Origin: an uncultured Actinomycetes bacterium
GTDB taxonomy: Bacteria; Actinomycetota; UBA4738; HRBIN12
DNA length: 64,000 nt
Direction of reading: 5' to 3'
Assembly (NCBI GenBank): GCA_963778545.1
Contig: CAVZUW010000015.1
Span: 115,825-179,824, forward strand
Shown here: positions 8,893-52,777 of the stretch, piece after piece
Layout: the number at the start of each line of letters is the position of its first letter
Numbering within the stretch: the stretch's first letter is position 1
Notes under the pieces: generated by a model
What the model was told of the DNA's origin: nothing
Database searches by the model: none
The model's input: the letters and a program-made list of their open reading frames with translations, nothing else
Translations under genes and position numbers: made by a program

Positions 8893-10768
8893 GGGTCGCG
8901 TGAGTTTCCTGCGACCCGATGCCTCGTCGATCCCCGACAGCCCGGGCGCGTACCTGTTCCGGGACGGCGACGGCCGGGTCGTCTACGTCGGCAAGGCCAG
9001 GTCCCTGCGCAAGCGGCTGGCCAACTACTGGGGACGCGACCTCCACCCCCGGACCGAGGCGATGGTGGCCGCCGCCGCCTCGGTCGAATGGATCATGGCC
9101 TCCACCGAGGTCGACGCCCTCCTGCTCGAGTACAACCTGATCCAGGAGCACCGGCCCCGGTTCAACGTCCGGTACCGCGACGACAAGTCCTACCCCTACC
9201 TCGCGCTGACGGTGGGGGAGCGCTGGCCGCGGGCCCAGGTCCTGCGGGGCGCCAAGCGCAAGAACGTCCGGTACTTCGGGCCGTTCGGGCACGCCTACGC
9301 GATCCGCGAGACCCTCGACGCCCTGACCCGCGTGTTCCCGGTCCGGACCTGCTCGAACTCCTTCTTCGACCAGCGCGCCCGGGCCCGCCGCCCGTGCCTG
9401 TACTACGACATCGGCCGCTGCTCGGGGCCGTGCGTGCCCGGAGCAGACGGGGGTCACCGAGGAGTCGTACCGGGCCGACGTCGATGCGCTCGGCGAGTTC
9501 CTGTCCGGCCACGAGCGCCCGATCATGGAGCGGCTCGAACGCGAGATGGAGGAGGCCGCCCGCCGCCAGGAGTACGAGCTCGCGGCCAAGCACCGTGACC
9601 AGCTCACCGCCGCCAGGCGGGCGCTCGAGAGCCAGGAGATGGTGCTCTCGCAGCCCGACGACCTCGACGTGGTCGGGCTCGCCGAGGACGACCTCGAGGC
9701 GGGGTTCCAGGTCTTCTTCGTCCGCCGAGGCCGGGTCATGGGCCGCAAGGGGTGGGTCGTCGACCGGGTCGAGGACCTCGACCGGGCCGGCCTCGTCGGG
9801 TCGTTCCTGCGCGAGCTGTACATGCAGCGACAGGACGTGCCGCCGAGGATCCTGGTGCCCGAGCTCCCGGCCGACGCCGAGGTGCTCGGGGCGTGGCTCG
9901 CGACCCGGCGGGACGGGCCGGTCCGGTTCGCCGTGCCCGAACGCGGGACCAAGCGCAAGCTGATGGAGACCGTGACCCAGAACGCGACCGAGCAGTTCCG
10001 CCGGCACAAGCTGCGGCGGGCCTCGGACTTCGGCGCCCGGTCCCGGGCCCTGGCCGAGCTCGGCCGGCGTCTCGAGCTCGAGCAGCCTCCGCTGCGGATC
10101 GAGTGCTACGACATCTCGAACCTCGGCCCGACGGACACCGTGGGCTCGATGGTCGTGTTCGAGGACGGCCTGCCCAAGCGGAGCGACTACCGCCGGTTCG
10201 AGATCAAGGGCGTGCCCGGACAGGACGATTTCGCAAGCATGGAGGAGATGCTCCGCCGCAGGCTGGCGCGCCTGGCCAAGGACCGGGAGCCCGGCGAGCG
10301 CCGCCGGTTCGCCTACCCGCCGGCGCTGATCGTGGTCGACGGCGGTCGCGGACAGCTCTCGAGCGCGACGAAGGCGCTCGCCGATGCGGACGTCCACATC
10401 CCGGCGATCGGGCTCGCCAAGCGGCTCGAGGAGGTCTACTTCCCCGACCGGCCCGACCCGCTCGTGATCCCCCGGGGCTCCGAGGCCCTGTTCGTGCTCC
10501 AACACCTGCGGGACGAGGCCCACCGGTTCGCGATCACGTACCACCGAGAGAAGCGCGGGAAGCGCGCGCTGGCCTCGCCGCTCGACGACGTCGCCGGGGT
10601 GGGGCCGTCCAGGAAGAAGGCGTTGCTGAAGCGGTTCGGCTCGGTGGCCCGTCTCGCGCGGGCGAGCGAGGACGAGATCGCCTCGACGCCGGGTGTCGGG
10701 GCCGACCTCGCGCGGGCGATCCACGATCGTCTGACCTCGTCCGAACCGGCCGGGGGGAGGCGCAGCGC

Positions 10769-33909: not shown

Positions 33910-35066
33910 ATGGCGTTCGACATGAGCCAGGTACAGCGCGGGGCGCGCAACCGCCGCACGCCGTACCACGAGGCGGCACAGAAGCACGACCCGAAGGGCT
34001 ACACCGTCTACAACCACATGTACTTCCCGATCCGGTTCGACTCGTTCGAGGCCGAGTTCGACACCCTCCTCAACGGGGTGACGCTGTGGGACGTCGCGGT
34101 CGAACGCTGCCTCGAGATCGGCGGCCCCGACGGGTTCCGGTTCGCCCAGCTGCTCACGCCGCGCGACCTGTCGACGTGCGCCGTCGGCCAGGCCAAGTAC
34201 GTCCTGATCTGCGACAGCGACGGCGGCATCATCAACGACCCGGTCATGACGCGGATGGACGAGAACACCTTCTGGTTCGCGCTCGCCTCCTCGGACGCGC
34301 TGCTGTTCGCGCGCGGCCTGAGGAACGCATACCCGGGACCTGGACGTGACGATCCGGGAGGCGGACGTCGCACCGCTCCAGGTCCAGGGGCCGAAGTCGA
34401 AGGACCTGATGGCCAAGCTCGATCGGCCCCGAGATCCTCGACCTGCGCTACTACTTCTGGACCGAGTCGAAGATCGCCGGCGCGCCGGTGGTGATCACGC
34501 GTACCGGCTGGACCTCCGAGGTCGGCTACGAGGTGTACCTCACCGACACGACCAAGGGCGTCGAGGTCTACGAGGCGATCATGGAGGCGGGGGACGAGTT
34601 CGGCGATCCGTCCCGACCGGCCCGAGCGACATCAGGCGGATCGAGGGCGCGATCTTCAACTGGGGCGCGGACATGACCTACGAGAACAACCCGATCGAGA
34701 TGGGTCTCGACCGCCTGATCGACTGGGACCTCGCGGACGATGCGAGTCATCTCGATGGCGGCCCTCCGCTCGATCCAGGAGCACGGCGTGCGCCGCCGGA
34801 TCAACGGCGTGGAGATGGACGGGGATCCGTTCCCGGAGCTCAACAACCTCAAGTGGCCGATCGTCGACGGGGGACAGGAGATCGGCAAGGTGACCTCGGC
34901 GATCTACTCGCCCAGGCTCGAGCGCAACATCGGGTTCGCGTGGCTCCCGGTCGAGCGCTCGACGCTCGGAGAGCGCGTCACGGTCGAGACCGAGTGGGGT
35001 GCCAGGACGGGGACCGTGGTCGAGATGCCGTTCGTCGATCCGAGCAAGCAGATCCCGGTCTCCTAG
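33910..35066 (+). pseudogene. GcvT/DmdA-family THF-dependent aminomethyl/methyl-transferase, paralog 1; five +1 frameshifts as sequenced
   Basis: An SD (GAGGAGG) precedes the start. Conserved segments are YTVYNHMYFP, TLWDVAVERCLEIGGPDGFRFAQLLTPRDLSTC, then (frame hops) DLDVTIREADVAPLQVQGPKS, GPEILDLRYYFW...VITRTGWTSEVGYEV, PTGPSDIRRIEGAIFNWGADM, and VISMAALRS...IYSPRLERNIGFAW. Removing 5 nt from 1157 gives 384 codons. Confidence 0.75.
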
Positions 35067-35146
35067 GACCACCGGCGCGAACCTGAAGCGCCGTTCAGCC
35101 GGTCGGGCGCGCTCGGGCCGCCCTGGCGGCTTGCGGCGGGGCGTGG

Positions 35147-35164
35147 TTTGAACGATGATTCAAA
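35147..35164. promoter_or_regulatory. AT-rich perfect inverted repeat TTTGAA-cgatga-TTCAAA (operator-like)
   Basis: It sits 46 nt upstream of the paralog-2 start, in the 143-bp gap between the two DmdA-like genes. 13 of its 18 positions are A/T in a ~70% GC context. Confidence 0.35.
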
Positions 35165-35209
35165 GTCCCGCCGGCGCCCGGCCGCGGGATCGAAGGGGGT
35201 CGTGCCCGG

Positions 35210-36388
35210 ATGGTGAACGAACGGCAGGAGATGCTCGAGCAGAGCGCGACGCTCTACTTCGGACCCTGGTACCGGCGATCCCCGTTCTTCGACGCGACGC
35301 GGCGGGCCGGCTGCACCGCCTACGACGTCTACAACCACATGCTCCTGCCCGCGTACTTCGACGACCCCGTGGTCGAGTACTGGGCGCTGCTCAACGACGT
35401 CACGGTGTGGGACGTCGCGGTCGAGCGCACGGTCGAGATCTCGGGGCCGGACGCGGATCGCTTCGTCGATTCGCTCACGTGTCGCGACCTCACGACCTGC
35501 GCGGTGAAGCAGGGCAAGTACATGATCGTCACCGCGCCGGACGGCGGGATCCTCAACGATCCGGTCTTGCTGCACGTCGGTGAGAACCGGTGGTGGATGC
35601 AGCTCGCGGACTCGGACGCCGGCCTCTACGCGCTCGGCGCCGCGTCCCAGTCGAACCTCGACGTCGAGGTGTCGTACCCGCACGCGTACCCGATGCAGGT
35701 CCAGGGCGCGAAGGCGGCGAAGACGCTGGAGAAGCTCGTGGGCCCCGCCGTGCTCGACCTCAAGTACTACTGGTGCGACTGGTTCGACGTCGGCGACATC
35801 CCGGTGCTGATCAGCCGCACGGGCTGGACCGCGGTCCAGGGGTTCGAGATCAACCTGCTCGACCCTTCCCGCGGTGACGATCTGTGGAACGCGGTGTTCA
35901 CGGCGGGGGAGGAGTTCGGGATCCGGCCGGTCGCGCCGGTCGAGGCGAGGCGGATCGAGGCCGGGATCATGAACTACAACTCGGACATGACCCACCAGGA
36001 CACCCCCCTGCACATCATGGGGCTCGAGCATCTCGTGGAGGACCAGCCGCAGGAGTACGTGGGCAAGGCGGCGCTCGAGGCCCTCAAGGCCAAGGGCGTC
36101 GATCGCAAGCTCGTCGGCATCGAGTGGTCCGGCGACGAGCTCAAGGCCGAGCTCTCGTGGTTCTGGCCGGTCGTTCGGGACGGTGAGCAGGTGGGCCGGG
36201 TCACCGACGCCGTGTGGTCCCCGAAGCTCGAGAAGAACATCGGGTATGCCTGGGTGCCGATCGATCTGGCCGAGCCCGGGACGAGCGTCGACGTGGAGTC
36301 CGAGCACGGGCCGATCACGGTCTCGACGGCCGCGATCCCGTTCATCGACGCCCGCAAGGAGGTCCCGGCGGCCTCCCTGCGCGGCTAG
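35210..36388 (+). CDS. GcvT/DmdA-family THF-dependent aminomethyl/methyl-transferase, paralog 2 (intact)
   Basis: 392 aa. Motifs are YDVYNHMLLP, TVWDVAVERTVEISGPDADRFVDSLTCRDLTTC, DGGILNDPVLL, LISRTGWTAVQGFEI, ARRIEAGIMNY and VWSPKLEKNIGYAW. Confidence 0.8.
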   Translation: MVNERQEMLEQSATLYFGPWYRRSPFFDATRRAGCTAYDVYNHMLLPAYFDDPVVEYWALLNDVTVWDVAVERTVEISGPDADRFVDSLTCRDLTTCAVKQGKYMIVTAPDGGILNDPVLLHVGENRWWMQLADSDAGLYALGAASQSNLDVEVSYPHAYPMQVQGAKAAKTLEKLVGPAVLDLKYYWCDWFDVGDIPVLISRTGWTAVQGFEINLLDPSRGDDLWNAVFTAGEEFGIRPVAPVEARRIEAGIMNYNSDMTHQDTPLHIMGLEHLVEDQPQEYVGKAALEALKAKGVDRKLVGIEWSGDELKAELSWFWPVVRDGEQVGRVTDAVWSPKLEKNIGYAWVPIDLAEPGTSVDVESEHGPITVSTAAIPFIDARKEVPAASLRG

Positions 36389-36421
36389 GTCCGCCGCCGG
36401 TCCGACCGAGGGGGCGTCGAG

Positions 36422-36853
36422 ATGCAGGGCACCAGGGTCGACCGCAGGCCGCCGGAGACCGCGCCCCCCGCCAAGGGCTTCCGGCGCGCGCTCCTGCTCG
36501 TCGAACGCGTCACGAAGGAGACCGTGTGGGACTGCCGCATGTGCGGGCAGTGCATCCTGCACTCGACGGGGCTCTCGTGCCCGATGCGTTGCCCGAAGAA
36601 CCTGCGGAACGGTCCCTGCGGCGGCACGCTGCAGGACGGCAGCTGCGAGGTGGTGCCCGAGATGAAGTGCGTCTGGGTCGCGGCGTGGGAGGGCTCGCGG
36701 CGCCTGCCGCTGTGGCGGGACCACATCCAGCACGTCGAGCCGCCGGTCGACTGGCGGCTCCAGGGAACCTCGTCGTGGGAGAACCTCGTGACGGGTCGCG
36801 ACCGGCAGGTGCCGGAGGGATGGTCGGGATCCGCGCACGGGTCCGGGTCGTGA
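36422..36853 (+). CDS. metV: MetV-like Cys-rich small subunit (MTHFR C-terminal-domain family)
   Basis: The hallmark is CRMCGQCILHSTGLSCPMRCPKNLRNGPCGG...CEVVPEMKCVW. It lies directly upstream of metF. Confidence 0.7.
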   Translation: MQGTRVDRRPPETAPPAKGFRRALLLVERVTKETVWDCRMCGQCILHSTGLSCPMRCPKNLRNGPCGGTLQDGSCEVVPEMKCVWVAAWEGSRRLPLWRDHIQHVEPPVDWRLQGTSSWENLVTGRDRQVPEGWSGSAHGSGS

Positions 36854-36863
36854 GACCCGCCCG

Positions 36864-37814
36864 ATGACGGAGGAGGCTCCGCGCAGCCACCTGCACCGCC
36901 TGTTGCGGGCGGGCGAGTTCGTCGTCACGGCCGAGCTCCAGACGAGCGACTCGGCCGACCCGGCGCGCATCGCCGAGCTGGCCGGGACCCTCCGGGGCAA
37001 GGTCGACGCGGTGAACTGCACGGACAACAGCGCCGCCCATGCGCACATCGCGGCGATGGCGGCCGCTCGCCTGCTCCTGGATCAGGGCGTCGAACCCGTG
37101 ATGCAGCTGGTCTGCCGCGACCGTAACCGGCTCGCCCTGCAGGCCGACCTCCTGGGTGCGGCCGCGCTGGGGGTTCGCAACATCGTCTGCATGACGGGCG
37201 ACGACGTCAGCGCCGGCGACCATCCCGAGACCAAGCCGATCTACGACCTCGACTCCGTCCAGTTGATCCGGACGGCGAAGATCATGCGGGACGAGGGCAC
37301 GTACCTCTCGGGCCGGGCCCTGTCCGACCCGCCGAGCCTGCTGATCGGCGCCGTCGAGAACCCGTTCGCGCCGCCGCTCGAGTTCCGGCCGATGCGGCTC
37401 GGGACGAAGATCGAGGCGGGGGCCGAGTTCGTCCAGACGCAGATCTGCTTCAACCTCGACAAGCTTCGGGTCTTCATGGCTCGGTGTGGCGAGCTCGGGC
37501 TGCTGGAGCACGTGAAGGTGCTGGCCGGGGTGTTCGTGCCGAGCTCGGCGGCGGGCGCACGCTACCTGCGCGATCAGGTACCGGGGCTCGACGTGCCCGA
37601 GCAGGTGATCGAGCGGATGGACGCGGTGCCCCGCGAGGCGCAGCGGGAGGAGGGGATCCGGCTCGCGCTCGAGATCGTCGAGGCGGTCCGGCAGATCCCC
37701 GGGGTCTCGGGCATCCACCTGATGACGATCAACCACGAGGAGGCGATCCCTCGCGTCGTCGAGGGCGCGGGGCTGCTGCCGCGTCCCCCCGCGGCGGATG
37801 TGGCGATCGCGTAG
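36864..37814 (+). CDS. metF: Methylenetetrahydrofolate reductase (MetF, MetVF type)
   Basis: 316 aa. EFVVTAELQTSDSADP, VDAVNCTDNSAAHAHI, MQLVCRDRNRLALQADLLGAAALGVRNIVCMTGDD and FVQTQICFN match the TIM-barrel MTHFR family. Confidence 0.8.
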   Translation: MTEEAPRSHLHRLLRAGEFVVTAELQTSDSADPARIAELAGTLRGKVDAVNCTDNSAAHAHIAAMAAARLLLDQGVEPVMQLVCRDRNRLALQADLLGAAALGVRNIVCMTGDDVSAGDHPETKPIYDLDSVQLIRTAKIMRDEGTYLSGRALSDPPSLLIGAVENPFAPPLEFRPMRLGTKIEAGAEFVQTQICFNLDKLRVFMARCGELGLLEHVKVLAGVFVPSSAAGARYLRDQVPGLDVPEQVIERMDAVPREAQREEGIRLALEIVEAVRQIPGVSGIHLMTINHEEAIPRVVEGAGLLPRPPAADVAIA

Positions 37815-37906: not shown

Positions 37907-38995
37907 ATGACCATGAGGCGAGCCCTCCTCGCGCTCGGCGTCGTTGCGGCGCTGGCGTTCTCCGCGTGCACCACCGGAACCACCACCAACAACACCGCCG
38001 AGCCCAAGGCGGTCTTCCCGTCCAGCCAGCCGACCGTCGCCACGGGCCAGGGCGCCGTCATCCAGGTCGTGCGCAAGGTGCTCCCGGCGGTCGTGAACGT
38101 CGTGGCGGACAGCTCCGAGGGACAGGGCGAGGGGACCGGGTTCGTCGTGCGCTCGGACGGCATCGTCGTGACGAACTTCCACGTGGTGGAGGGCGCATCG
38201 AAGGTCACCGTGCTCAGCTCGGCCGATGAGCCGGTCCACTACGACGCCCGCGTGATCGGCGGCGACGAAGAGGCAGATCTCGCCGTCCTCCAGGTGGACG
38301 CGACCGATCTGCCGACGGTCGCGATGGGGAACTCCTCCGATCTGCAGCTCGGCCAGCAGGTGGTCGCGCTCGGCTACGCGCTCGGGTTGGCGGGCGGGCC
38401 GTCCGTCACGACCGGCGTCGTCTCGTCGCTCACGCGCAGGATCACGGTGCAGGACCCCCGGTGCACCGAATGCACCAACGGCGAGCGGGTCTACACGGAC
38501 GTGATCCAGACCGATGCCGCGATCAACCCCGGGAACTCCGGAGGACCCCTCCTGAACATGGCGGGGCAGGTCGTCGGGATCAACACCGCGGGGGCGAACC
38601 AAGCCGAGAACATCGGGTTCGCGATCCAGGTCGACTCGGTCAAGCCGACGATCTTCCAGGCCGCTGAGAACCCGTCGCAGCCGGTCGCGTTCATGGGGAT
38701 CTCCTCCGCGGACGCCTCGGACCCGTCGGTCCAGTTCGAGTTCAACCCGCAGGTGAACAGCGGTGCCGTGATCGTGGATCTCGTGAGCGGCGGACCGGCC
38801 GAGCAGGCCGGGATCCAGGTCGGCGACGTGGTCGTGCAGTTCGACGGCCAAGCGGTGGACTCGGCCGAACGGCTCGGCGAGCTGATCCGCGAGCACCGGC
38901 CCGGCGACCAGGTCGAGGTCGGCGTCGTCCACTCGGACGGGTCGCGGGACACGCTCAGCGTCACGCTGGGCGTGAACCCGGTCGCGACGACCTAG
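37907..38995 (+). CDS. HtrA/DegP-family serine protease (S1C) with one C-terminal PDZ domain; lipoprotein signal
   Basis: The lipobox is ALAFSAC. The catalytic residues sit in VVTNFHVV, EADLAVL and GNSGGPL. The PDZ domain includes GPAEQAGIQVGDVVVQFDGQAV. Confidence 0.85.
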   Translation: MTMRRALLALGVVAALAFSACTTGTTTNNTAEPKAVFPSSQPTVATGQGAVIQVVRKVLPAVVNVVADSSEGQGEGTGFVVRSDGIVVTNFHVVEGASKVTVLSSADEPVHYDARVIGGDEEADLAVLQVDATDLPTVAMGNSSDLQLGQQVVALGYALGLAGGPSVTTGVVSSLTRRITVQDPRCTECTNGERVYTDVIQTDAAINPGNSGGPLLNMAGQVVGINTAGANQAENIGFAIQVDSVKPTIFQAAENPSQPVAFMGISSADASDPSVQFEFNPQVNSGAVIVDLVSGGPAEQAGIQVGDVVVQFDGQAVDSAERLGELIREHRPGDQVEVGVVHSDGSRDTLSVTLGVNPVATT

Positions 38996-39035: not shown

Positions 39036-39041
39036 TAGCCT
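39036..39041 (+). promoter_or_regulatory. -10 hexamer TAGCCT for a leaderless thiS/ttuB-ttuA-trmI transcript
   Basis: It ends 7 nt before GTG 39049, with no SD. Confidence 0.4.
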
Positions 39042-39048
39042 GACCCGC

Positions 39049-40269
39049 GTGAAGGTGAGGCTCCGCAACCCCGACCGGGAGGTCGAGCTCGCCGGCGGTC
39101 GCAAGATCCACGACGTCCTGGGCGAACTCGGCATCAACCCCGACACCGTGCTCGTGATCCGTGAGCGCGAGCTGCTCACGCGCGAGGATCGGGTCGGCGA
39201 GGCCGACGTGATCGAGATCCGCCCGGTGATCAGCGGCGGCTCCGGCGGGAATCGGATGAAGTGCCGCCGATGCAAGGCGCCCGCGGTCGTCGAGATCCGC
39301 CGGCACAACGCGGCGTTCTGCGCCGACTGCTTCCTGCGCCACGTGCGCGAACAGGTCAGGCGGGCGATCGAGGGGCACGACATGTTCGAACCCTCGGACC
39401 GGATCCTGGTCGCGGTCTCGGGCGGCAAGGACTCCCTCGCGCTGTGGGACGTCCTGCTCGAGGCCGGCTACCACGCGGACGGGCTGTACCTCGGGCTCGG
39501 GATCGGCGAGTACTCGGAACGCTCGCATCGGATCGCGCGCGGGTTCGCCGACGAACGCGACGCGCGCCTCGTCGAGGTCGACCTTGCGCGCGACTACGGT
39601 TTCGACGTGCCGACCGCCGGCAAGAAGGGCTCGCGGTCGACCTGCGCGGTGTGTGGCCTGTCCAAGCGCTACGTCTTCAATCGCGCCGCGCGCGAGGGCG
39701 GGTACGACGTGATCGCGACCGGCCACAACCTGGACGACGAGGCCGCGACGTTGCTCGGCAACACGCTTCGGTGGCAGACGGACTACATCGCGCGCCAGTC
39801 CCCGGTGCTGCCGGCGGAGGAGGGGTTCGCGCGCAAGGTGAAGCCGCTGTACCGGCTCTCGGAGCTCGAGACCGCCGCGTTCGCGTTCCTGCGCGGGATC
39901 GACTACGTGGTGGAGGAGTGCCCGCTCGTGGGCGGGAACACGCAGCTCCGGTACAAGGACGCGATGAACCACCTCGAATCGACCTCGCCCGGCACCAAGG
40001 CGCAGTTCCTCTTCGGCTACCTGGACCGGGCCGCCCCGCTGTTCGCGACGCAGGACGAGGTCGAGCTCGTCGGGTGCGAGCGATGCGGCCAGCCCACGAC
40101 CGGCAGGTTCTGCGCGTTCTGCCGCGCGCAGGCGCAGATCCTGGGCGAGCGGCTCGGAGAGCCGCGGGCCGGGCGGGTTGAACCAGGCGAATCGAGCGAT
40201 CGCGAGACGGCCGAGGCCCTGTCCGACGAGGTCATGCCGGTGGAGATCTACGGGAGCGTGCCGCGATGA
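39049..40269 (+). CDS. ttuA: Fusion protein: N-terminal ThiS/MoaD/TtuB-like beta-grasp sulfur-carrier domain (ending ...VISGG at aa 64) joined to a TtuA/NcsA-type tRNA 2-thiolation PP-loop ATPase
   Basis: Residues 1-64 are MKVRLRNPDREVELAGG...EADVIEIRPVISGG, followed by the linker SGGNR. From M70 the TtuA module has CRRC...CADC, the PP-loop VAVSGGKDS, CAVCGLSKRY, GHNLDDE, ECP and CERCG...CAFC. It is one uninterrupted ORF of 406 aa. Confidence 0.75.
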   Translation: MKVRLRNPDREVELAGGRKIHDVLGELGINPDTVLVIRERELLTREDRVGEADVIEIRPVISGGSGGNRMKCRRCKAPAVVEIRRHNAAFCADCFLRHVREQVRRAIEGHDMFEPSDRILVAVSGGKDSLALWDVLLEAGYHADGLYLGLGIGEYSERSHRIARGFADERDARLVEVDLARDYGFDVPTAGKKGSRSTCAVCGLSKRYVFNRAAREGGYDVIATGHNLDDEAATLLGNTLRWQTDYIARQSPVLPAEEGFARKVKPLYRLSELETAAFAFLRGIDYVVEECPLVGGNTQLRYKDAMNHLESTSPGTKAQFLFGYLDRAAPLFATQDEVELVGCERCGQPTTGRFCAFCRAQAQILGERLGEPRAGRVEPGESSDRETAEALSDEVMPVEIYGSVPR

Positions 40270-41042
40270 TCGGGCCGTTCGAGGCGGGGGAGAGGATCCT
40301 GCTGGTGGACCAGCGCGACCGCCGGTACCTGCTCACGCTCCAGACGGGCGAGACCTGGCACTCCCACGGCGGCGGACTCTCGCACGACCTGCTGATCGGA
40401 TCGCCCGAGGGGACCCTGGTGCACTCGGCGACGGGGATGGCGTTCCGAGCGTTCCGACCGCGGCTGGCCGACTTCGTGCTCAAGATGCCGAGGGGCGCCC
40501 AGGTCGTCTACCCCAAGGACGTCGGCGCGATCCTGGTCGGGGCGGACGTCTTCCCGGGTGCCCGCGTCCTGGAGGCCGGGACGGGTTCGGGCTCGCTCAC
40601 GCTGGCCCTGTGCCGGGCCACCGGTCCCGAAGGCCGGGTGGTCTCCTACGACCTGCGGCCCGAGTTCCAGGAGGGGGCGGCCCGGAACATCGAGTCGTTC
40701 TTCGGGAAGGCGCCGGACTGGCTCGAGCTCCGCGATGGCGACGTCCGCGACGTCGCGGGGAGCGGCGAGATCTTCGACCGCGCGATCTTGGATCTCCCGG
40801 AGCCGTGGGAGGCGCTCGAGCCGCTCGCGACCGTGCTGCCACCGGGCGCGATCTTCTGCGGGTACCTGCCGACGACGAACCAGGTGCAGCAACTGGTGCT
40901 CGCCATGGAGCGGAGCGGATACGAGCACCTCGAGACGTTCGAGGTGCTCCACCGCTCGTGGCACGTGACCGCGCGGAGCGTCCGGCCGGACCAGCGGATG
41001 GTGGCGCACACCGGGTTCATCACGCTCGCGCGTCGCGTCTGA
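40266..41042 (+). CDS. trmI: tRNA (adenine58-N1)-methyltransferase
   Basis: ATGA overlap with the upstream gene. PRGAQVVYPKDVGAILVGADVFPGARVLEAGTGSGSLTLAL and RAILDLPEPWE match the Rv2118c/TrmI family. It occupies the conserved position upstream of mpa. Confidence 0.85.
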   Translation: MIGPFEAGERILLVDQRDRRYLLTLQTGETWHSHGGGLSHDLLIGSPEGTLVHSATGMAFRAFRPRLADFVLKMPRGAQVVYPKDVGAILVGADVFPGARVLEAGTGSGSLTLALCRATGPEGRVVSYDLRPEFQEGAARNIESFFGKAPDWLELRDGDVRDVAGSGEIFDRAILDLPEPWEALEPLATVLPPGAIFCGYLPTTNQVQQLVLAMERSGYEHLETFEVLHRSWHVTARSVRPDQRMVAHTGFITLARRV

Positions 41043-41178
41043 GCGATCAGCCCGCGGACGTCCGAGCGACAACCTTTGACCCGAGGAGGCGTTCAGTAAG
41101 GCGTATCCGCTGCCGAAAAGCGTATGGATAGGCCAAGAGACCTCCCCCGCCTTCATCGGTAAGGGGGAGGACCAGGGG

Positions 41179-41184
41179 TATGCT
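41179..41184 (+). promoter_or_regulatory. Candidate -10 hexamer TATGCT for mpa
   Basis: It lies 25 nt upstream of ATG 41210. The short leader would carry the GGGAGGTGAAGGAG SD. This argues for 41210 over ATG 41180, which sits inside the hexamer. Confidence 0.3.
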
Positions 41185-44530: not shown

Positions 44531-45733
44531 GTGAACCCTCCACCGCGCCATGCGCAGCTCCACAAGGCGCCGTTCGGCTGGATGGACCTGGTGGTCGCGG
44601 TCGCGTTCGTGGTGATCGCGACCAGGTTCCACCTCCAGCCGTCCCGGTCGTTCGACCCATGGCTGCTCCTCGTCTTCTTCCCGCTGATCGTCCTCGTGCA
44701 CGAGGCGGGGCACGCCGTCGCCGCGCTGCTGGTGGGGCATCGGGTGCTCGAGGTCAAGGTCGGCGCGGGTCCGAAGGTGACCGCGTGGCACGGTCGGTGG
44801 CGTCTGGTGCTCGGGTTGTTCCCACTCGGCGGTCATGTGATGGCGGGTTCATCCGATCCTTCGGGCTACCGCGGGAAACGGCTCGCGATCACGGCCGCCG
44901 GTCCGGCGATGAACGCGTTGATGTTCGCATTCGCCCCGCTGATCGATGCGTCCTCGAGCACGCTGCGGGACTTCGCGATCGTCAACGCCTGCGTCCTCAT
45001 CTTCAACCTGTTCCCGTACAGCGTCCGAACCCCGTACGGCCCGCAGAGGACGGATGGGCTCGGACTGGTGCGCACGGTGTCCGACAGCGACTGGCAGCTC
45101 GCGGAGGAGCGGTCGGGTTTCGCGGTCGCGGGCGCGCAGCTGGCCGACCAGCGCGGGGATCGGGAGGAGGCGCGGCGCATCACCGACGAAGCGGCGGCGA
45201 TGAACCCTCGAAGCGTCGTCCTGCGCACGTGGCTGGGCTACCGTGCGATCAAGGACGAGGGCTACGCTTCGGGTCGAACGATCTTCCGGGAGCTCGTGGA
45301 CGAGGATCGACAGGTGCCGGCGGCCGGGCTCGGGCAGCGCGACGACGTGAGCCGGGGGATCCACCTGAACAACCTGGCCTGGTGCGATCTGATGCTCGAC
45401 GATCCGGCTCTCGTCGAGGAGGCGCTTTCGACCTCGGCCGCGGCGATCGACCTGCTGCCTGAGCATCCGGCCATCCGTGGGACGCGCGCGTTCGCACTGA
45501 TCCTCGGTGGGCGGCCCGGCGAGGGGATCGATCTCGGCCTCGCGGCGTACGCGAAGACCAAGGAGCCGCCCACGAAGGCGCTGCAGGCGTGCGTCCTCGC
45601 GATCGGGTACGCGCGCGACTGGCGGTTCGGTCAGGCCGCGCGATGGATCGACCTGGCGCGGAGGGCCGATCCGAGCTGCTCCCTGCTCGACCGGGCGTCG
45701 GGGGAGCTCGAAACTCTCCGGCCCGCGCGGTGA
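44531..45733 (+). CDS. Site-2-protease-like (M50) membrane metalloprotease with a C-terminal TPR-like soluble domain
   Basis: HEAGHAVAALLVGH sits in a hydrophobic helix. The second S2P motif is IFNLFPYSVRTPYGPQRTDGLGL. The C-terminal ~200 aa are helical repeats. The start is uncertain (GTG 44531 or ATG 44582). Confidence 0.6.
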   Translation: MNPPPRHAQLHKAPFGWMDLVVAVAFVVIATRFHLQPSRSFDPWLLLVFFPLIVLVHEAGHAVAALLVGHRVLEVKVGAGPKVTAWHGRWRLVLGLFPLGGHVMAGSSDPSGYRGKRLAITAAGPAMNALMFAFAPLIDASSSTLRDFAIVNACVLIFNLFPYSVRTPYGPQRTDGLGLVRTVSDSDWQLAEERSGFAVAGAQLADQRGDREEARRITDEAAAMNPRSVVLRTWLGYRAIKDEGYASGRTIFRELVDEDRQVPAAGLGQRDDVSRGIHLNNLAWCDLMLDDPALVEEALSTSAAAIDLLPEHPAIRGTRAFALILGGRPGEGIDLGLAAYAKTKEPPTKALQACVLAIGYARDWRFGQAARWIDLARRADPSCSLLDRASGELETLRPAR

Positions 45734-50851: not shown

Positions 50852-52777
50852 ATGCACCCGCTCGAACGGCTGGTGAACCTCGTCGCCCTGCTGCTCGAGT
50901 CCCGGACGCCGCTCACGTTCGACCAGATACGGAGCAAGCTGTCCGAGGGGTACGGCCACCAGGACGCCTCCTCCGCCAAGCGGATGTTCGAGCGCGACAA
51001 GGACGTCCTGCGCGACATCGGAGTTCCGATCGAGGTGGTCTCCACGGATGCCTGGGACGTCGAGCACGGCTACACGATCGACAAGGACCGCTACTACCTC
51101 CCCGACATCGCGTTCACGCCGGAGGAGCTGTCGGCGTTGTTCGTCGCCGTCCGTTCGGCAGGCGACGTCTCGGCCGAGGAGGCCGTCCGCAAGCTGCTCT
51201 CGGGCGCCGACCGCGGGATCCTGGCGGGCCTGGGGCCGCCGGCGCTCGGCGGCGAGACCGACCCGAACCTGTCCCGTGCCGCCGAAGCCGTCGCCGAGGG
51301 ACGCCGCGTGCGGTTCGCCTACCGGACCTCGCGCGGCGAACGCTCGGACCGCTCGGTGGACGCGTTCGGGCTGGCCGTGCGCGGCGGCCACTGGTACCTC
51401 GTCGGCCTGGACCTCGACCGCGAGGAGATCCGATCGTTCCGGCTCTCGCGGATCTCGGACGACCTCGAGATCGTGGGGGAGGGGACCGAGCCTCCCGACG
51501 GCTTCCGCGCCGCCGAGCACGTCCAGGCGGGTCCCTGGGGCCCCGGCGACGCCGAGACCACCGCCACGATCGCGTTCTCGCCCGACGTGGCGTGGTGGGC
51601 GACCAAGGGAGTCGCGAGCGCGGAGACGGTCCGGACCCGGGAGGACGGGTGGATCGAGGTGCGCGTGCCCTGGTCGCCGGGGGAAGGCCTGGTCCCGTGG
51701 ATCCTGTCGTTCGGACCCGACGCGGAGGTCGTGGAGCCCCCCGAGCTCCGATCGGAGATCCTGGGCAGGCTGGAGGCGAGATCGTTGGCTCCTGAGGACG
51801 GTGGCCGCTCCGGCGCGGCCCGCAGGGCGCCCGAGAAGGCGTCCGAACGCCTCCGTCGACTGCTCACCGTGGTCCCGTACCTGGTGCGGAACCAGGGGAC
51901 GAGGGTCGCCGAAGCCGCGGACCTGTTCGGGATGTCCGAGCCCGAACTGCTGGCCGACCTCGACCTGCTGTTCGTCTCGGGGCTTCCGCCGTACGGGCCC
52001 GGCGACCTGATCGACGTGGACATCCAGGACGGTCGCATCTGGATCGGCATGGCCGACTACTTCGCCCGGCCCCTGCGACTCACGCGGAGCGAGGCGCTCG
52101 CGATCTACCTGCGGGCCACCGTGCTGGCCGGGGCCCCGGGCCTGGAGGAGGCGCCGGCCCTGTCCTCGGCGATCGGCAAGCTGGCCGAGGCGCTCGGCCC
52201 GGAGACGCTCGGCGAGCTCCCCGAGCGGGTGGACTCGGCCGGGGACGGTCGCACCCCGGACACGCTGGGCGAGCTCCGTCGCGCGGCCGCTGACCACGAG
52301 CGTCTCCGGATCGAGTACTACGCGGCCTCGGGTGCGGAGACCACCGACCGCGAGATCGACCCCGAGGAGGTCTTCTTCGCGATCGGGAACTGGTACGTGG
52401 CCGCGTGGGACCACCGTTCGGGGTCCGAGCGCCTGTTCCGGGCGGACCGGATCCACGCCGCGGCGGCGACGGGGGAGCGGTTCGAGCCGCGGGGGCTCCG
52501 GGGCGCCGGGAGGCCCCTGTACACGCCGAAGGAGGACGACGTCCGCGTGACCGTCCGCCTGCGGCCCGAGGCCCGGTGGGTGGCCGAGTACTACGAGACC
52601 TCGCGCGAGCAGGAGTTGGGGGACGGCCGTTTGGAGGTGGAGCTCCCCGCCGGAAGGCTGGAATGGCTCGAGCGCCTCCTGCTGCGCCTGTGGCCCGACG
52701 CCGAGGTCGTCGACCCTCCCGACCTGGGCGAACGGGTCCGCGAGCTTGCCGGCAGGACCCGGCAGCGGTACGGCTAG
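50852..52777 (+). CDS. pafBC: Fused PafB-PafC: two tandem HTH-WYL-WCX transcription-activator modules in one 641-aa polypeptide
   Basis: The first half has LERLVNLVALLLESRTPLTFDQI..., WYL-type HWYLVGLDLDREEIRSFRLSRI, and ends ...ILGRLEA. The second half has ERLRRLLTVVPYLVRNQGTRVAEAADLFGMSEPELLADLDLL..., NWYVAAWDHRSGSERLFRADRI, and ends ...RVRELA. Confidence 0.85.
   Translation: MHPLERLVNLVALLLESRTPLTFDQIRSKLSEGYGHQDASSAKRMFERDKDVLRDIGVPIEVVSTDAWDVEHGYTIDKDRYYLPDIAFTPEELSALFVAVRSAGDVSAEEAVRKLLSGADRGILAGLGPPALGGETDPNLSRAAEAVAEGRRVRFAYRTSRGERSDRSVDAFGLAVRGGHWYLVGLDLDREEIRSFRLSRISDDLEIVGEGTEPPDGFRAAEHVQAGPWGPGDAETTATIAFSPDVAWWATKGVASAETVRTREDGWIEVRVPWSPGEGLVPWILSFGPDAEVVEPPELRSEILGRLEARSLAPEDGGRSGAARRAPEKASERLRRLLTVVPYLVRNQGTRVAEAADLFGMSEPELLADLDLLFVSGLPPYGPGDLIDVDIQDGRIWIGMADYFARPLRLTRSEALAIYLRATVLAGAPGLEEAPALSSAIGKLAEALGPETLGELPERVDSAGDGRTPDTLGELRRAAADHERLRIEYYAASGAETTDREIDPEEVFFAIGNWYVAAWDHRSGSERLFRADRIHAAAATGERFEPRGLRGAGRPLYTPKEDDVRVTVRLRPEARWVAEYYETSREQELGDGRLEVELPAGRLEWLERLLLRLWPDAEVVDPPDLGERVRELAGRTRQRYG

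Follow-up and report, generated by a model that had tools for sequence, protein, structure and literature searches.

A TtuB-type sulfur carrier fused through its Gly-Gly motif to a TtuA-type tRNA thiolase in uncultured Actinomycetota, a likely precursor protein

To our knowledge, all known chemistry of the sulfur carriers ThiS, MoaD, Urm1, and TtuB requires a free C-terminal carboxylate. Among ubiquitin-like (Ubl) proteins, the eukaryotic fusions Ub-L40 and Ub-S27a and the Rpn11-processed pro-ubiquitin of Caldiarchaeum are precursors from which the Ubl is released by cleavage after Gly-Gly, stoichiometrically with its fusion partner, and carriers with short C-terminal extensions are trimmed by JAMM peptidases encoded in the same operon, as in the pairs QbsE-CF/QbsD, HcyS-Ala/HcyD, and CysO-Cys/Mec+. 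In the MoaD-MoaE fusions (MoaX of Mycobacterium tuberculosis, DR2607 of Deinococcus, and archaeal proteins) a carrier is placed N-terminally on the enzyme that uses its thiocarboxylate, with the Gly-Gly at the junction, and cleavage after the Gly-Gly activates the protein. The Deinococcus and archaeal fusions require this cleavage for activity, and JAMM/MPN+ proteases carry it out (PMC8832034). The second close parallel is the TtuA-TtuB system of Thermus thermophilus, crystallized as 5GHA and 5ZTB, whose 2-thiolation of tRNA nucleotide 54 has been described as a thermophile trait (PMC7025502, PMC7912444) and requires 1-methyladenosine 58 (m1A58) to be efficient (PMC7912444; PMC3980101). Here we describe a gene that encodes a TtuB-like carrier and a TtuA-like enzyme as one polypeptide. 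It lies in a 64,000-nucleotide (nt) stretch of contig CAVZUW010000015.1 from an uncultured Actinomycetes bacterium, the whole of which we call the window.

The gene had been picked out by a model that saw only the letters and the open reading frames (ORFs) of the window. This sequence-only reading described a single ORF of 406 residues and offered three accounts of it: a fusion that must be processed after Gly64, a carrier that acts in cis without being cut, or a lost stop codon or sequence error. ORF listing and translation agree with its description of the frame, the motifs, the Gly-Gly codons, and Met70 (Table 1). The translation holds EIRPVISGG, CRRC...CADC, SGGKDS, CAVC, EECP, GHNLDDE, and CERC...CAFC, and the frame runs on for 342 residues after Gly64, so that the Gly-Gly is not the C terminus of the translated product. 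With Thermus the locus shares both proteins, the adjacency of their genes, the catalytic, Fe-S, and zinc residues, the carrier Gly-Gly, and the TrmI partner. It differs in that both proteins are joined in a single polypeptide that begins with the carrier and holds its Gly-Gly in a peptide bond, that trmI stands in the same operon, that no ttuC-like E1 was recognized nearby among the scanned ORFs of the window, and that related metagenome-assembled genomes (MAGs) are labeled in their record titles as soil or other environmental samples, not as thermophile. The architecture is that of the MoaD-MoaE fusions, with an N-terminal carrier on a thiocarboxylate-using enzyme, Gly-Gly at the junction, and here a nonconserved linker; in contrast to them, the locus points to tRNA thiolation instead of molybdopterin synthesis, the partner is a PP-loop Fe-S thiolase, and both the cleavage and the protease are predicted. 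Unlike in the ubiquitin fusions, the context is that of a bacterial sulfur carrier and not of protein tagging, and the partner is the carrier’s own client enzyme. Neither a TtuB-TtuA fusion nor a tailed TtuB is described in the literature that we searched, which lay outside subscription journals, so that this absence is not proof.

Profile, structure database, and predicted structure agree on the N-terminal half. Searched on its own, the N-terminal piece of 69 residues matches Pfam ThiS over residues 9 to 64 (E value, 4e-6), with the match ending on Gly64 at column 76 of 76. Against all chains of the PDB, residues 3 to 64 align to Thermus thermophilus TtuB (5ZTB_E; E value, 4e-12) through the last residue of that chain, and the weaker matches to the carriers SAMP2 (3e-6) and PF1061 (4.5e-6) also extend to their last residues. 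An AlphaFold2 model of the fusion, computed with 62 homologues as input, has a mean predicted local distance difference test score (pLDDT) of 68 and a predicted template modeling (TM) score of 0.64; its N-terminal domain follows the beta-beta-alpha-beta-beta order of a beta-grasp fold, and Foldseek superposes it onto TtuB chains with TM scores of 0.82 to 0.89 at about 50% identity (0.89 and 49% for 5ZTB_E) and, for 5GHA_F, with a root mean square deviation of 0.8 Å over 60 residues. Residues 61 to 68, comprising the Gly-Gly and the linker, have pLDDT values below 50. The assignment of residues 1 to 64 to the ThiS/MoaD/TtuB beta-grasp class, made from the letters alone, is thus borne out, and the domain models as the expected fold.

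The enzyme half had been read as a complete TtuA module from Met70 onward, and Thermus TtuA (5GHA_A) is indeed matched from its residue 1: residues 70 to 361 align by phmmer to chain residues 1 to 292 with an E value of 1e-91 and 311 bits. Both halves therefore match chains of one crystallized complex, 5GHA/5ZTB. Further PDB matches of the module are TtuA of Pyrococcus horikoshii (9e-70) and the U34 thiolase NcsA (1e-24, 90 bits), Pfam finds TtuA_LIM_N at residues 71 to 96 (1e-10) and the PP-loop family ATP_bind_3 at residues 119 to 289, and Foldseek aligns the module with TtuA chains at TM scores of 0.70 to 0.75 and about 47% identity in the structural alignment. The best NCBIfam model is the Pyrococcus-type TtuA (residues 70 to 360; E value, 2e-78), which scores 263 bits, compared with 115 for NcsA and 73 for TtcA; the equivalog cut-off of the TtuA model is 450. 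By these scores the protein appears to be a much nearer relative of TtuA than of NcsA or TtcA, and homology and operon together point to U54 as its putative target. Throughout the alignment of 62 homologues, the PP-loop (S124 to S129), the Fe-S cysteines C199, C202, and C291, and both zinc fingers (C72, C75, C91, and C94; C343, C346, C355, and C358) are invariant, so that the enzyme is intact. The three Fe-S cysteines align to Cys130, Cys133, and Cys222, the [4Fe-4S] ligands of Thermus TtuA (PMC7025502).

Beyond the module, residues 374 to 406 have pLDDT values below 50. The otherwise variable tail carries the motif EVMPVEIYG, in which E394, P397, and E399 are invariant and V395 and Y401 nearly so among the 62 homologues; neither Thermus TtuA nor the Nitriliruptoria forms described below have the motif. 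It could serve as a docking peptide or result from a nucleotide constraint just upstream of the trmI start.

We are virtually certain that the TtuB-TtuA fusion is genuine. Full-length fused homologues of the window protein form at least 120 clusters, with 73 to 97% identity and 99 to 100% query coverage (homologue counts are clusters at 90% identity in JGI, ENA, NCBI, and Logan assemblies and represent lower bounds). A second fusion lineage, older and absent from the sequence-only reading, is found in Nitriliruptoria; it adds at least 118 clusters at full coverage, with a usual linker of AGPAR that lacks a Met, and includes MAGs of Euzebyales and Egibacteraceae as well as the cultured Egibacter rhizosphaerae (P0510, 387 residues, on a 4.64-Mb contig). 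Both types taken together amount to at least 240 fused clusters, one of which has 1078 member sequences. GTDB genomes, one for each species, were also scanned; of the 80 loci that resulted, 16 were fused by their reading frames, 63 split, and one split with an internal frameshift (L070), and JGI’s automatic product name, “TilS/MesJ/sulfur carrier protein ThiS,” indicates that its annotation pipeline sees both domains. When the library was clustered at 50% identity, nearly all of the best TtuA relatives began at query residue 70; the fusion is therefore specific to certain clades and not general to TtuA.

This recurrence decides against the third account of the sequence-only reading, in which what are truly two ordinary genes would have been joined in frame by a mistake in sequencing or assembly or by a recent inactivating mutation. 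The junction is G-rich and a 1-nt insertion or deletion (indel) switches its state, and some related MAGs are Nanopore assemblies, among them the one with the frameshift inside its carrier, all of which would suit such an error. Yet the fused state occurs in all four collections of assemblies, in Illumina contigs from both SPAdes (NODE_) and MEGAHIT (k141_), in Nanopore MAGs, and in an isolate genome; linker lengths differ by multiples of three nt, so that the frame is kept; and both halves are under obvious purifying selection. An error is already refuted for the family, the fusion is no one-off artifact among close relatives, and for the junction as read in the window an error is scarcely credible.

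Some irregular loci were also seen. In the frameshifted locus (L070, around 9990 to 10200, in a Nanopore Acidimicrobiia MAG) the N-terminal half of the carrier is in one frame and ...EIRPVMSGGARP-stop in another, which is probably a homopolymer error or a pseudogene. Two proteins, P0252 (560 residues) and P0241 (411 residues), appear to join TtuA to TrmI domains, and P0310 (687 residues) possibly combines ThiS, TtuA, and TrmI; their domain matches are only partial, they may stem from frameshifted contigs, and we do not rely on them. The ttuA-trmI junction is an ATGA overlap as well, so a 1-nt indel there would fuse ttuA to trmI.

The Gly-Gly is conserved in all of these lineages and at the same time masked. 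RPVISGG is found in every fused homologue of the window’s clade that includes the N terminus and as R[PS]VISGG in the Nitriliruptoria forms, S or T replacing a residue of the motif outside the window’s clade. Gly63-Gly64 is kept in 62 of 62 aligned fused homologues and in all genome loci with a readable carrier frame. The stretch that follows, up to the first zinc-finger Cys, measures 2 to 14 residues in the fused homologues and is rich in A, G, S, and P with no conserved sequence; the equivalent of Met70 is sometimes T, L, I, or S in the window’s clade and is lost in all Nitriliruptoria forms. With the N-terminal domain alone (residues 1 to 64) as query, 882 proteins were retrieved, and the best 120 of them are mostly standalone carriers of 64 to 105 residues with 80 to 91% identity. 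Five of these 120 are fragments or lack the motif. The sequence-only reading had envisaged orthologous loci with a separate gene ending in Gly-Gly and a stop, and none of the 115 motif-bearing proteins among the best 120 of 882 ends in this way: all carry 2 to 27 residues after RPVISGG, most often GGR, AR, or GR. The standalone carriers of the lineage thus have a masked Gly-Gly too, a point that had escaped the sequence-only reading, and the carrier is therefore made as a pro-form in these Actinomycetota, whether fused or not. One defining trait of a mature sulfur carrier, the free Gly-Gly carboxylate, is absent from the translated product and would arise only after proteolysis. In their 1 to 3 (up to 27) extra residues the standalone relatives resemble the QbsE, HcyS, and CysO carriers, from which they differ in that no JAMM gene was found nearby, in the scanned ORFs of the window or the flanks of related loci, and in that translational coupling appears to have produced the tail as a by-product.

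We therefore consider it likely, given the drift of the linker next to an invariant Gly-Gly, that the fusion is a precursor cut after Gly64 to release carrier and TtuA; of the three accounts given by the sequence-only reading, processing is the best supported. The precursor would have to be cut because known carrier chemistry begins with adenylation of the free C-terminal Gly carboxylate. That the fusion instead remains uncut is unlikely. The TtuB domain would then work in cis without a thiocarboxylate, as a plug or regulator of the carrier groove or as a docking module for E1 or tRNA, and TtuA would take its sulfur from sulfide or another carrier. The conservation of RPVISGG (R[PS]VISGG in Nitriliruptoria) over deep divergence, with the next residues free to drift, is the pattern that would result if function depended on a free Gly-Gly terminus, and the fused domain is orthologous to the sole operon-encoded carrier of the split relatives, so that an uncut state would remove the carrier. 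A free C-terminal carboxylate is, moreover, what sulfur-carrier chemistry as we know it needs. The MoaD-MoaE fusions are likewise inactive until they are cut (PMC8832034). Nevertheless, several points would fit an uncut protein: linkers as short as 2 to 5 residues would keep the domain near the enzyme, Fe-S TtuA has been proposed to bind TtuB-COSH or bisulfide (PMC7025502), Thermus TtuB is also conjugated covalently to lysines of TtuA close to its active site, for which a role in regulation has been proposed (PMC3980101), and no protease gene was found in the scanned ORFs of the window or in the flanks of related loci. In one version, which we regard as quite improbable, the fusion is never cleaved and the TtuB domain forms an intramolecular gate in the carrier channel that controls access of sulfide to the Fe-S cluster, with no C-terminal thiocarboxylate involved. 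This gate, if real, would mean that a ThiS-family domain can act in a new way and that U54 thiolation in these Actinomycetota is independent of carrier and E1.

How the fusion arose can be followed in split relatives. One split locus (L001) and one fused locus (L002) share the full gene order of the window, comprising two GCV_T genes, DUF5981, MTHFR, HtrA, carrier and ttuA, trmI, arc, dop, pup, prcB, prcA, and pafA. In L001 the carrier is a separate gene of 67 residues that overlaps ttuA by 4 nt, and comparison of the junction DNA of this one closely related pair, GGGGGAGGCGGCCGGTGAACCGGATGAAG in L001 and GGGGGATCGGGGCCGGTCAACCGGATGAAG in L002, reveals a single-base indel in a short G-rich junction. 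A 4-nt overlap of stop and start is found in most split loci. In the commonest arrangement among the 63 of them, the Gly-Gly is followed by two codons and a stop that shares an ATGA or GTGA with the ttuA start, at the codon equivalent to Met70. By itself an ATGA at Met70 means nothing, as any Met-Lys pair gives ATGA; it gains meaning because split relatives place the carrier stop exactly there, which bears out the footprint of translational coupling that the sequence-only reading had seen. The Gly-Gly codons of split genes, 5 to 7 nt before the ttuA start, often have the Shine-Dalgarno-like form GG[AG]GG, which was found in 35 of 64 split loci compared with 4 of 18 fused ones (Fisher’s P = 0.018, uncorrected for phylogeny). 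This suggests that the short carrier tail may be the spacer of a coupled ttuA start site, with the Gly-Gly codons acting as a putative Shine-Dalgarno sequence.

The same features bear on the possibility that TtuA is made alone by internal initiation at Met70, the full-length fusion being a minor or nonfunctional by-product of a recent frameshift. A G-rich GGCGGG lies 7 nt upstream of the Met70 ATG, Met70 is conserved in at least 90% of the window’s clade, and the ttuA start of split relatives falls on this codon or just ahead of it, downstream of their Shine-Dalgarno-like Gly-Gly codons. Against this, several members of the window’s clade (with T, L, I, or S) and all Nitriliruptoria-type fusions (with AGPAR-C...) have no start codon at this place, and the lower frequency of Shine-Dalgarno-like Gly-Gly codons in fused loci suggests that internal initiation has been relaxed there. 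The Gly-Gly of the carrier would also remain blocked, and the fusion is stable across a clade of class level. We thus judge initiation at Met70 to be a very improbable source of the functional enzyme.

A neighbor-joining tree of the TtuA parts orders these states. Among its outgroups (Nitrospirota, Bacillota, Dehalococcoidia, and others), six of seven carriers end in Gly-Gly and a stop, the remaining one (L030) having a tail of one residue. Acidimicrobiia are all split, mostly with tails of one or two residues, and all eight Nitriliruptoria-type loci are fused. The window’s own clade is split at its base, and its derived part mixes fused loci (the window, L002 to L009, and L014) with split ones (L001, L010, and L011). 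This pattern requires at least two independent fusions and several reversals. Comparison of the loci gives as the ancestral state a separate ttuB and ttuA with overlapping stop and start (A/GTGA), and the change of state has occurred several times.

Taken as a precursor, the protein suggests the following route. The fused polypeptide would be made from a two-gene, leaderless operon together with TrmI, and a peptidase from another part of the genome, most likely of the JAMM/MPN+ type, would cut after Gly64, yielding a 64-residue carrier with a free Gly-Gly carboxylate and full-length TtuA in a 1:1 ratio. A ThiF/MoeB-type E1 would adenylate and thiocarboxylate the carrier, which would deliver its thiocarboxylate to the Fe-S site of TtuA; TtuA would then adenylate and thiolate U54 (or m5U54) in the T-loop, and TrmI of the same operon would make m1A58, which pairs with nucleotide 54. 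Since standalone carriers in these lineages carry 1 to 27 extra residues after Gly-Gly, an activity that trims behind the Gly-Gly must already exist there. Such an activity would make a full fusion neutral, which would explain the frequent switching between split and fused states. Strong precedents exist for the cutting step: DRJAMM, HvJAMM1, and PfJAMM1 cleave MoaD-MoaE fusions, which are inactive until then (PMC8832034), and a JAMM mutant of Thermus shows aberrant TtuB conjugates and has about 50% less thiouridine (PMC3980101).

Several observations weigh against this route. We infer cleavage from chemistry and from conservation. A Pfam scan of about 45 ORFs of the window, selected by G+C content at third codon positions (small ORFs and several gaps lay outside the scan), found no JAMM/MPN protein, ThiF-type E1, or rhodanese, in line with the remark of the sequence-only reading that it saw no JAMM gene in the window. 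Nor was a JAMM motif present in about 1.4 Mb of sequence flanking 82 related loci, with a strict regular expression that could miss divergent members, and an E1-like ORF was found by motif scan in only one of the 82 loci (L060), a distant one from Moorellaceae. Besides carrier sulfur, Fe-S TtuA has been suggested to accept bisulfide, so that the carrier may be dispensable (PMC7025502). Finally, the NCBIfam TtuA score falls short of the equivalog cut-off, leaving U54 specificity to homology and operon context, and the AlphaFold2 model is of moderate quality by its mean pLDDT.

Three neighboring genes were considered as candidate partners and set aside. An HtrA-type serine protease with trypsin and PDZ domains (37907 to 38995, plus strand) lies directly upstream of the operon, in the same position as in L001 and L002; its lipoprotein-like N terminus (LAFSAC, judged by eye) suggests that it is exported and probably extracytoplasmic, and it is thus unlikely to be the processing enzyme. 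An M50 peptidase (44531 to 45733), from a family of membrane proteases, has no counterpart in the fused locus L002. A class V aminotransferase (1018 to 2292), considered as a cysteine desulfurase, looks like a kynureninase.

If confirmed, the precursor would extend to tRNA modification a logic, in which a Ubl carrier is fused to its client, that in bacteria has until now been known for molybdopterin synthase. The tailed and fused TtuB carriers of actinobacteria would then, as a group, have to depend on a peptidase that cuts after Gly-Gly. An intact ttuB-ttuA-trmI operon occurs widely in Acidimicrobiia, Nitriliruptoria, and the uncultured actinobacterial clade, and many of the MAGs are labeled as soil or environmental in their record titles; if their tRNAs carry 2-thiouridine 54 (s2U54) or its 5-methyl derivative (m5s2U54), this modification would have a role broader than heat adaptation. 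In addition, the enzymes for m1A58 and s2U54, two nucleotides that pair in the T-loop, are physically coupled by the operon, an arrangement that fits the m1A58 dependence seen in Thermus. Egibacter rhizosphaerae, which is cultured and has a complete genome, makes the fusion directly testable.

Table 1. Features of the fused gene and its operon in the window
Feature	Position	Strand	Basis or remark
Fused ttuB-ttuA gene	39049..40269	+	Single uninterrupted ORF, 406 residues, GTG start, TGA stop
TtuB/ThiS-type beta-grasp sulfur-carrier domain, residues 1-64, RPVISGG at end	39049..39240	+	Pfam, PDB, Foldseek
Gly63-Gly64 codons, GGC GGC; would-be carrier C terminus, predicted cleavage site	39235..39240	+	
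Linker SGGNR	39241..39255	+	Variable; predicted disordered
Met70 ATG, first codon of TtuA module	39256	+	Translation
TtuA module, residues 70-361: N-terminal zinc finger, PP-loop ATPase and [4Fe-4S] ligands, C-terminal zinc finger	39256..40131	+	
PP-loop SGGKDS, residues 124-129	39418..39435	+	Invariant; aligned to Thermus TtuA motif
Cys199-x-x-Cys202, two of three [4Fe-4S] ligands	39643..39654	+	Aligned to Thermus TtuA CSAC
Cys291, third [4Fe-4S] ligand	39919-39921	+	Aligned to Thermus TtuA EECP
C-terminal tail of fusion protein, residues 362-406	40132..40266	+	Low model confidence
EVMPVEIYG motif in fusion-protein tail, residues 394-401	40228-40251	+	Conservation
trmI, tRNA m1A58 methyltransferase, 258 residues	40266..41042	+	Pfam and PDB match
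ATGA overlap, fusion gene stop and trmI start	40266-40269	+	Sequence
TAGCCT, -10-like box (TANNNT), 7 nt before GTG start	39036..39041	+	Comparative evidence only

The sequence-only reading had also noted a TAGCCT box 7 nt before the GTG start, an ATGA overlap with trmI, and an apparently leaderless operon. Both sequence elements are present, and the box has comparative backing: TAGCCT or TACGCT stands 12 to 17 nt upstream of the start in 19 of 19 loci of the window’s clade, at 12 to 14 nt in 17 of them, within unconserved flanks, and no Shine-Dalgarno sequence was seen at the start of the fusion or carrier gene in these 19 loci. In many Acidimicrobiia a box resembling TANNNT or cANNNT occupies this position, and the Bacillota relatives have GGAGG instead. 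A scan for promoters of the E. coli sigma-70 type and for terminators returned nothing, a scan that is uninformative for a high-GC actinobacterium. The near-fixed distance of the box supports a predicted leaderless or near-leaderless transcript.

TrmI matches Pfam TrmI-like_N (2e-17) and GCD14 (9e-30). Its closest relative of known structure is M. tuberculosis Rv2118c (1I9G; E value, 5e-66, full length), followed by Thermus TrmI (2PWY) with 7e-44, and judging from this similarity the window protein is the orthologue of Rv2118c. The gene follows ttuA in about 70 of 82 loci and is, by its ATGA overlap, predicted to be translationally coupled to ttuBA.

Downstream, the window continues from trmI with arc, dop, an M50 peptidase, the pup region, prcB, the prcA region, pafA, DUF3866, pafBC, tatC, and a helY-like gene, with the pup and prcA regions lying outside the Pfam scan; the Pup-proteasome order is the classic actinobacterial one, and the adjacency to these genes pointed out by the sequence-only reading is real. 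In M. tuberculosis, TrmI is Rv2118c and mpa is Rv2115c, with no ttuA known at that position, and in Acidimicrobiia arc lies 1.5 to 5 kb further away. The neighborhood of TtuBA and Pup is thus probably inherited trmI-arc synteny, in line with a general placement of trmI beside arc/mpa in Actinobacteria, and nothing in these data points to a functional link, at which no test was aimed.

The 137-nt spacer between trmI and arc (41043 to 41179) contains a CGTAT(G/C)NAT box about 55 to 65 nt upstream of the arc start and a hairpin at about 41141 to 41172, whose inverted repeat CCTCCCCC...GGGGGAGG pairs the arc Shine-Dalgarno sequence with an upstream anti-Shine-Dalgarno sequence (about -28 kcal/mol for a stretch of 75 nt). 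The box is conserved more widely than the hairpin, which is kept only in the nearest relatives, L003 to L006. Together, box and hairpin make a separate promoter and a structured leader probable for arc.

Further along, the M50-family peptidase mentioned above is a site-2-protease-like protein of 400 residues, encoded on the plus strand between dop and pup-prcB-prcA and also present in L001 (15426 to 16679). The pafBC gene (50852 to 52777, plus strand) encodes one protein of 641 residues with two WYL domains, two WCX domains, and a PafC-type helix-turn-helix, that is, a fused PafB-PafC regulator. On the other side, upstream of the operon, lies a conserved folate-linked cluster (34740 to 37814, plus strand) of GCV_T aminomethyltransferases, a small DUF5981 protein (annotated as an MTHFR C-terminal domain), and MTHFR. 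The first GCV_T copy of the window is an ORF of 108 residues that comprises the C-terminal barrel only, L001 and L002 having two full copies (383 and 393 residues), and it may be truncated or frameshifted.

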